Of a stretch of DNA of 64,000 bases, positions 24,552 through 26,774 are shown one piece after another. Under the pieces are notes generated by a model, which saw nothing but the letters and a program-made list of their open reading frames with translations, did no database searches and was not told the DNA's origin. Made by a program: the position numbers and the translations under genes. The stretch's first letter is position 1. Each line of letters opens with the position of its first letter. Origin of the DNA: Escherichia coli. Lineage in GTDB: Bacteria > Pseudomonadota > Gammaproteobacteria > Enterobacterales > Enterobacteriaceae. The DNA lies in assembly GCF_050920415.1 (NCBI RefSeq), contig NZ_CP169309.1; one strand, given 5' to 3'.

Positions 24552-26774
24552 TTAGTCCTCGTTTACAACCTTTTGCTGGGCGGCTTTTTTGGCCTGAACG
24601 CGGGCAATAGCCGCGGCAACTGCCGCTTTGCGCGGATCAACCTGTTCTTCTGGTACCGCATTAGCCTGTTGCTGTTCCAGCTTGCGTGCTTTGGCGCGGG
24701 CAATAGCCGCTTCGACGGCAGCTTTGCGCGGATCAACCTGTTCTTCTGGCTCCGCATTAGCCTGTTGCTGTTCCAGTTTGCGCGCTTTGGCACGGGCAAT
24801 AGCGGCTTCGACGGCAGCTTTGCGCGGATCGACCTGTTGTTCTGGTTCCGCATTAGCCTGTTGCTGTTCCAGCTTGCGTGCTTTGGCACGGGCAATAGCG
24901 GCTTCGACGGCGGCTTTGCGCGGATCGACCTGTTGTTCTGGTTCGGCATTAGCCTGTTGCTGTTCCAGCTTGCGTGCTTTGGCACGGGCAATCGCGGCTT
25001 CGACGGCGGATTTGCGCGGATCAACCTGTTCTTCTGGCTCCGCATTAGCCTGTTGCTGCTCCAGCTTGCGCGCTTTGGCGCGGGCGATAGCGGCTTCAAC
25101 TGCGGTTTTACGTGGATCAGCAACGGTTGCTGCGTCGTTAGTTTGCTGCAGTTCTGCCTGTTTCGCTCTGGCTTGCGCTTTACGGGCTTCCCGTGCTGCA
25201 ATAATTGCACTGTTATCCGGGCGTTCGCCCGCTTTAATCACAATAGGCTGTGTAGCCTGGGCCTGTTTCTCTTTCACCCGCGCCAGAGCGGCAGCAATCG
25301 CATCTTTATCTTTGGCTGCAGGTTGAACGGCTGCGCTCTTATGTCGTTCAAGGCGAGCCGCTTTTTCGCGCTCCAGACGAGCCTGGCGCGCTTCGAAACG
25401 CGCTTTGGCTTCTGCGGCGCGCTTTTCTTCCTGACGAATAGCCGCAATTTCAGCTTTTTCCTGACGGAAATATTGCACCAGGGGAATATTGCTCGGGCAA
25501 ACCCACGCGCAAGCCCCACATTCAATGCAGTCGGCAATGTTATGCGTGGTGGCTTTATCGTGTTGCTGACCTTTGCTGAACCAGTACAACTGTTGCGGCA
25601 AAAGATCCGCAGGGCAGGCGTCAGCACAGGCGCTACAACGGATGCAATTTTGTTCTTCCTGTGGTTCGCCAAGCTCATTGGCAGAGGGAGCCAACAGACA
25701 GTTGGTAATCTTTACGACCGGGACATCCAGCCATGGCAAGGTAAAGCCCATTAGCGGGCCGCCCATAATCACCATTTGATCGGCAGAGGGGCAGAATCCG
25801 GCATCATTCAATAAATGACGCACTGGCGTACCCAGCCGTGCCCAGACGTTGCCCGGGCGTGCGATTGCTTCGCCAGTCAGGGTCACGACACGCTCAGTAA
25901 TCGGTTCGCCATCGATAACGGCACGTTTCACTGCATAAGCAGTGCCGACGTTTTGCATTAATACGCCGATATCGGATGAACGCCCGCCATGTGGAACCTG
26001 CTTCCCGGTTAGAATGTAGGTTAATTGTTTAGCACCGCCAGAAGGATATTTGGTTGGAATCACCCGCAGAGAAATATCGTGAGAGTCCGCCAGCACCGCG
26101 CGCAGCATGGAAATCGCCTGCGGTTTGTTATCTTCAATGCCGATAAGAATTTCGCGTGGCTGCAGAATATGCGCAAGAATGCGAATACCCTCTACGACCT
26201 GAGCCGCGCAATCCTGCATCAAACGGTCATCGGCGGTAATGTACGGCTCGCACTCAGCAGCGTTGATAATCAACGTTTCAATCTTATCTCCGCCGCCCTG
26301 CAATTTAACGCCTGTCGGGAATCCCGCACCACCCAGCCCGGCAACACCAAACTGATGAATGCGCTCGATTAACTCTTCGCGACTGCGAGAGCGATAATCG
26401 TCCCAGCCGTCGCGCGGGATCCAGCAGTCTTCGCCATCGGCATCAATAATCACGCTTAATTCAGCTAAAGCTGAAGGATGAGCCGTAGAGTGGGGCGCAA
26501 TAGCCGTAACGGTACCCGAGGTGGGCGCGTGAACTGGCAGCATTTTGCCGCGTCCACGGGTAAGCGGCTGGCCGCGCAATACTTTATCACCGACGCTAAC
26601 GCACAATTCACCTTCAGCGCCAATATGTTGTTTCAGTGGTATGACAAAACGCTGCGCCAGTGGTACCTGGCGCAGGGGCGTACCGTTGGACTGGGTTTTC
26701 ATCTCCGGTGGATGGATGCCGCCGTTGAAATCCCAGATTTTATTTTTTCTGAATGCAGAGAATAACTTAAGCAT
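24552..26774 (-). CDS. rsxC: Rnf/Rsx complex subunit C (NADH-binding Fe-S subunit, repeat-rich C-terminus)
   Basis: ORF track 740 aa; two 4Fe-4S ferredoxin Cys clusters; C-terminus has about six 32-aa repeats ([29 protein letters not shown].). Confidence 0.93.
24602..25120. repeat. Intragenic tandem array of about 5.4 copies of a 96-bp unit inside rsxC
   Basis: Unit starts at 24626, 24722, 24818, 24914 and 25010 (period 96 bp, in-frame, a few substitutions per copy); encodes the repeated 32-aa Ala/Lys/Gln-rich segment of RsxC. Confidence 0.9.

Follow-up and report, generated by a model that had tools for sequence, protein, structure and literature searches.

An in-frame 96-bp repeat array in Escherichia coli rsxC corresponds to the VNTR marker ms11 and very probably encodes variable numbers of tail helix modules

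The rsxC gene and anatomy of its repeat array

The window, i.e., the whole stretch of 64,000 nucleotides of E. coli DNA that was analysed in this study, harbors an rsxC gene whose 3′ part is occupied by a tandem repeat (Table 1). Against NF003454, the RsxC equivalog model of NCBIfam, the 740-aa ORF scored 868.8 bits (cut-off 345); its score against TIGR01945 (rnfC) was 597 bits, and the surrounding ORFs on the same strand match the models of RsxA, B, D, G and E, as in the rsxABCDGE operon. RsxC is the subunit of the Rnf-type Rsx complex that lies in the cytoplasm and contains the NADH/FMN and 2x[4Fe-4S] domains. Its Pfam domains, RnfC_N, Complex1_51K, SLBB and Fer4 (Fer4_7), are all located inside aa 14-430, and nothing was detected past aa ~460 in a Pfam search of the protein. 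The solved RnfC chains 8ahx_C, 7zc6_C and 9eri_C align with RsxC within the limits of aa 14-498. Thus, the repeat is left without structural or family coverage, and the tail that contains it lies outside the catalytic core. As RnfC is the peripheral NADH-binding subunit, the RnfC structures suggest that the RsxC tail is cytoplasmic.

Tandem Repeats Finder, applied to positions 23000-27000, detected a single array at 24601..25119 (period 96, 5.4 copies, 91% matches, 0% indels, score 821), within one base of the position inside rsxC that had been proposed from the sequence alone (24602-25120). The original prediction of an in-frame 96-bp array with about five and a half near-identical units, each adding 32 aa to RsxC, was likewise borne out, as the codon register resolves five full units and a degenerate sixth. 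The full units share 85-97% nucleotide identity and differ at 3-14 of 96 nucleotides; to call the repeats perfect was therefore an overstatement. The highest pairwise similarity is observed between two adjacent internal units. The degenerate terminal unit is near-constant across the E. coli alleles examined, with three single-residue variants. Upstream of the array, two older and degenerate copies of the helix motif, at aa 491-504 and at aa 519-539, can also be recognised in distant RsxC proteins. In addition, long spurious ORFs had been expected on both strands of the repeat, and they were found on the plus strand (435 aa and 232 aa) as well as on the minus strand (215 aa). In the RefSeq annotation of the 13 loci that were fetched, none of these three extra ORFs is represented.

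Table 1. Coordinates of rsxC, its repeat array and associated features in the window.
Feature	Position	Strand	Basis
rsxC CDS, 740 aa	24552..26774	-	ORF, NCBIfam NF003454, Pfam and operon neighbours
Single older copy of the helix motif, degenerate, ahead of the array, aa 491-504	25263..25304	-	read from sequences
ms11 forward primer site GAAACAGGCCCAGGCTACAC	25250..25269	-	exact match; primer from PMC8215070, PMC11773471
Conserved tail segment resembling the motif, aa 519-539	25158..25220	-	also in distant RsxC tails
Five full 96-bp / 32-aa units, aa 553-712	24639..25118	-	Tandem Repeats Finder and codon register
Boundaries of the full units	25023-25118, 24927-25022, 24831-24926, 24735-24830, 24639-24734	-	codon register
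Degenerate terminal (sixth) unit, 28 aa, aa 713-740	24555..24638	-	codon register; stop codon 24552-24554
ms11 reverse primer site CTGGCGCTGGTTATGGGTAT, within rsxD	24504..24523	+	1 mismatch; primer from PMC8215070 Table 1
Spurious antisense ORF, 435 aa, open through the repeat	24447..25754	+	ORF list
Spurious ORF, 232 aa	24628..25326	+	ORF list
Spurious ORF, 215 aa, alternative frame	24563..25210	-	ORF list

Copy number among E. coli genomes and identity with ms11

Copy number was determined with a flank-only query (601 bp per side, array removed) against 5,424-5,426 complete E. coli genomes, from which 60 genomes were sampled in even steps down the ranking. Counted from assemblies, of which short-read-derived ones can collapse such arrays, five units were present in 38 of the 60 sampled genomes (flank span 1721 or 1727 bp, the class of the window), four units in 11 (1624-1628 bp), seven units in six (1919 bp) and six units in four (1817 bp). 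In one further genome the tail is interrupted by an IS element, which leaves 59 informative genomes. Therefore, RsxC length differs from strain to strain, as was predicted, and counting units across E. coli genomes ruled out an identical number in all strains. Rarer alleles of three units and of one unit were found in a whole-region search. This search gave a co-linear alignment in 4,326 of 5,424 genomes; the ~20% of genomes with split alignments agree with the 17% of six- and seven-unit alleles in the flank-only sample. K-12 and BL21 match the window in array length (five units).

To the window allele, twelve alleles that were fetched and translated were added. The RsxC proteins encoded by this set of 13 alleles have lengths of 612, 676, 708, 709, 740, 742, 772 and 806 aa. 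The reading frame is kept in each of the 13, without internal stops, and DPRKT opens the first unit in every allele examined. Lengths that deviate from multiples of 32 aa (709, 742 and 806 aa) are due to one-codon CAG (Gln) indels within units. Units of 33 aa (99 bp) with an extra CAG (Gln) in the QQQ run were observed in Eco889, IPCEC42 and CFT073, and represent a small trinucleotide slippage nested in the 96-bp repeat. The arrays of Eco889 and IPCEC42 are identical unit for unit except for a clean block of three units, and this difference directly illustrates how whole units are gained or lost. Two O157:H7 strains possess identical six-unit arrays. Over positions 24300-25500, the window shows 97.7% identity to K-12, from which it does not derive, and only two of 5,424 genomes reach at least 99% identity; one of these, NZ_CP169399.1 (strain MFDS1022581, animal-source food), matches the window at 100% over this region.

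Some of the loci inspected carry rearrangements in or next to the array. In DSM 103246 (NZ_CP019944.1, fetched-locus 1997-5653), the IS4-like element ISVsa5 is inserted in the rsxC tail and leaves a 635-aa RsxC separated from a pseudogene fragment that represents the C-terminal part, showing that the loss of most of the array is tolerated in a natural isolate. A 216-bp tandem duplication across the 3′ end of rsxC and the 5′ end of rsxD was observed in LCP30S3_I5 (NZ_CM149862.1, fetched-locus 1753-1968); one of its junctions falls within a repeat unit, and as a result of the duplication an additional partial ‘rnfD’ pseudogene lies between rsxC and rsxD. The one-unit allele of CH4799 (NZ_CM166346.1, fetched-locus 1753-3591) was called a pseudogene by PGAP (‘missing C-terminus’), although its ORF is intact to VVNED-stop (612 aa). 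This call reflects either an annotation error caused by the short array or a collapse of the array in the assembly.

The array and its copy-number variation are already known as VNTR ms11. This locus was described as a 96-bp repeat with alleles of 4.5-7 plus a null allele and a Simpson index of 0.68, and its primer pair was credited to Gorge et al. 2008, J Clin Microbiol 46:1026 (PMC8215070). The primers were labelled ‘ms11 (rsxC)’ (PMC11773471) and ms11 was included in a 7-locus scheme (PMC12175529). In the window, an in-silico amplicon of 766 bp was obtained with these primers, and the in-silico amplicons of the alleles range from 382 to 964 bp in 96-bp steps. The primers flank the array, the unit is 96 bp long and copy number is polymorphic; the array is thus the same locus as ms11 of Shigella/E. 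coli MLVA, from which it does not differ at the DNA level. As the published primers and the 96-bp unit map here, the array represents the rediscovery of a standard marker. In the typing papers (PMC8215070, PMC11773471, PMC12175529), ms11 serves as a size marker only, and the encoded motif is absent from their discussion. In general, our analysis confirmed that the feature is real and was interpreted correctly. At the DNA level the array is unremarkable, and its importance is a practical one, for example as a typing marker.

Related arrays have been described elsewhere. RsxC of Erwinia amylovora contains a 40-aa tandem repeat that starts at residue 553, varies between 0 and 5 copies and has been put forward as a VNTR typing marker (PMC10587187). 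This array is orthologous, with the same start residue (553) and the same core as the E. coli units; however, the Erwinia unit comprises 40 aa instead of 32 aa, and its Ala/Pro-rich spacer is unrelated in sequence. Among the loci used in E. coli MLVA, CNV004 (tolA) and CNV001 (ftsK) are also coding VNTRs (PMC11773471 Table 1). They resemble the rsxC array in that in-frame repeats with polymorphic, tolerated copy number encode extended non-globular segments of envelope-associated proteins, but they reside in other genes, and the kinship is one of kind and not of homology. The units of CNV004 and CNV001 are shorter than the 96-bp rsxC unit. Phase-variable contingency loci likewise possess intragenic tandem repeats whose copy number is altered by slippage. 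However, their simple-sequence repeats switch genes on and off, whereas the 32-codon unit of rsxC cannot cause a frameshift, and therefore changes length or valency and provides no on/off switch. With 13 of 13 alleles in frame, a contingency or phase-variation locus was ruled out.

The encoded helix motif and its conservation

Each unit encodes the core DP[RK]KAAV[AE]AAIARAKA[KR]K, a basic and alanine-rich segment of ~20 aa with a minimal stretch of 13 aa and DP[RK]K in front, and the core is followed by a short acidic spacer of Gln, Glu and Pro. The net charge of the helix core (18 aa) is +4, and that of the remainder of the unit is -4. The 32-aa segment had been described as helical, and structure prediction agrees with this: in a single-sequence AF2 model of aa 429-740 (mean pLDDT 75, i.e., moderate confidence; pTM 0.25), each unit is predicted to form one isolated helix of ~24 residues, with 8-residue breaks at EPEEQVDP. 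In this single-sequence model, the repeat region appears as a string of separate helices with short breaks, without a confident globular or tertiary fold. A role as membrane-binding amphipathic anchor was also considered and rejected, since by a crude test the low hydrophobic moment of the core helix (Eisenberg hydrophobic moment 0.19-0.25, mean hydrophobicity -0.08 to -0.32) speaks against an amphipathic helix of the classical kind.

A motif profile of 30 columns was searched against 1.84 billion (1.84e9) representative proteins at E<=0.001, and only 239 of them matched. The long matches contain 3-13 copies each, and ten of ten that were tested are RsxC equivalogs. The short matches are consistent with fragments, as was found for those inspected. 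Motif instances were also obtained from a protein search with the 254-aa tail, in which the matches listed were all fragments of <=443 aa. Four apparent carriers of the motif outside RsxC, one of them annotated as ‘DUF1192’, turned out to be RsxC tail fragments, frameshifted reads or chimeric gene calls. Against the PDB, the profile gave no match even at E<=10, and the literature searched contained nothing relevant on the function of the RsxC/RnfC tail or on a cryo-EM structure of Rsx. In short, the motif is a helix specific to the RsxC tail, for which neither a Pfam family nor a solved structure exists and to which a function is assigned nowhere in the literature searched.

In the 13 E. coli alleles, the 55 full units comprise 44 distinct nucleotide sequences and 18 protein sequences. 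Residues 1-22 of the unit are almost invariant, and many of the corresponding codons vary synonymously. The core was also found in tandem in the RsxC tails of Klebsiella, Salmonella, Citrobacter, Enterobacter, Yersinia, Dickeya, Serratia, Erwinia, Haemophilus, Aeromonas, Pseudoalteromonas and uncultured Gammaproteobacteria. Over several orders of Gammaproteobacteria it is near-invariant and occurs in 1-13 copies; the spacers between the motifs are unrelated in sequence, and the distance from motif to motif ranges from 27 to 96 aa. The peptide core is under purifying selection and is specific to RsxC tails. This conservation of the helix across the Gammaproteobacteria is what the present analysis adds to the known ms11. 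The tail was previously regarded as a linker, and its length indeed varies; however, it is not merely a linker, since it carries a deeply conserved motif. Most units have their closest relative at the equivalent position in another strain and not in their own array, which argues for slow turnover and weak homogenisation within arrays. Strong concerted homogenisation was accordingly not borne out.

Interpretation of the variable unit number

We consider it very probable that the array, which occupies the 3′ part of rsxC, is identical with the coding minisatellite known as ms11, that its units are helix modules of the tail, and that their copies vary in frame. Each 96-bp unit encodes a single module of the C-terminal, probably cytoplasmic RsxC tail, made up of a predicted basic helix of ~24 residues and an acidic spacer. 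As the unit comprises 32 codons, the gain or loss of whole units keeps the reading frame and alters only the number of helix modules, which in E. coli ranges from 1 to 7, with 5 being the commonest. Direct repeats gain and lose units by replication slippage or unequal sister-strand exchange. In rsxC, units may be gained or lost by replication slippage or by unequal sister-strand recombination between direct repeats that are 85-97% identical. Selection at the protein level preserves the helix sequence, whereas the synonymous sites and the spacers are free to drift.

The tail would most likely serve as a flexible and multivalent series of basic helices, set between acidic spacers and appended to the Rsx complex, that provide docking sites or carry charge. 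It is tempting to speculate that the RsxC-specific helix of ~13-20 aa, in its 1-13 copies, acts as a multivalent docking module and that the ms11 polymorphism changes the valency of the interaction; we put this forward tentatively, as a possibility. Candidate docking partners would include redox proteins, nucleic acids and further Rsx complexes. Concerning the number of units, we infer that it is largely tolerated and does not constitute a switch. The one-unit allele of CH4799, the IS-interrupted tail of DSM 103246 and Erwinia strains with 0 repeats suggest that the array may be dispensable under many conditions. What remains of interest at this locus is the conserved helix multiplied by the repeat, which was invariably seen in tandem and exclusively in the tails of RsxC proteins. 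The natural series of E. coli alleles with 1-7 units provides a ready-made set for functional study of this helix.

Alternatively, the array might be a neutral, low-complexity spacer, i.e., a selfish minisatellite that expands and contracts without a function of its own and whose copy number drifts freely. RsxC ORFs are intact with 1-7 units, the tail of one isolate is interrupted by an IS element, the catalytic domains stop before the tail, and Erwinia strains with 0-5 units were described with no phenotype reported (PMC10587187). However, spacers that are unrelated in sequence and length separate a ~20-aa core that is near-invariant across orders, and within E. coli the 44 nucleotide variants are translated into 18 protein variants with an essentially unchanged core. 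A core peptide that is held constant across orders disfavours a purely neutral spacer, which we regard as rather unlikely.

An adaptive role, in which the number of units modulates Rsx activity (e.g., the rate of SoxR re-reduction) and is selected by lineage or condition, appears improbable to us, and the support for it is anecdotal. Haemophilus shares the motif array and, to our knowledge, does not possess the SoxRS system; the motif is thus unlikely to be SoxR-specific. Alleles do track lineages, as in the two O157:H7 strains with their shared array, but an association with lineage is expected of any slowly mutating marker. RsxC was among the features of a machine-learning model for the clinical outcome of O157:H7 infection (PMC12711010), and a study of olaquindox-selected E. 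coli described an in-frame deletion in rsxC (PMC7696260). However, neither variant was located to the array, both are possibly short-read mapping artefacts in the repeat, and the olaquindox study also gives 14 mixed variants in rnfC (PMC7696260).

That the length of the array in the window is a product of assembly collapse or expansion is scarcely credible: short-read assemblies do break at such arrays and numerous RsxC fragments in the protein database are partial or frameshifted and stop within the repeat, but the window length matches K-12 and BL21, and the five-unit allele, which is the commonest among complete genomes (38 of the 59 informative ones in the sample), together with a complete genome of 100% identity gives no sign of a collapsed assembly.

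The repeat nevertheless routinely breaks short-read assemblies and gene calls. In public databases it gives rise to partial or frameshifted RsxC entries and to spurious ORFs, and short but intact alleles may be flagged as pseudogenes by PGAP. Many RsxC entries in public protein sets are partial, frameshifted or chimeric and end or become scrambled inside the array, for example a cluster of 184 members annotated as ‘partial 4Fe-4S dicluster domain-containing protein [E. coli]’. A further irregularity was observed in strain 2012C-4221 (NZ_CP027437.1, fetched-locus 694-1751), in which rsxD is annotated as frameshifted by a 1-nt deletion beside a four-unit rsxC, reflecting either pseudogenisation of the rsx operon or a sequencing error.
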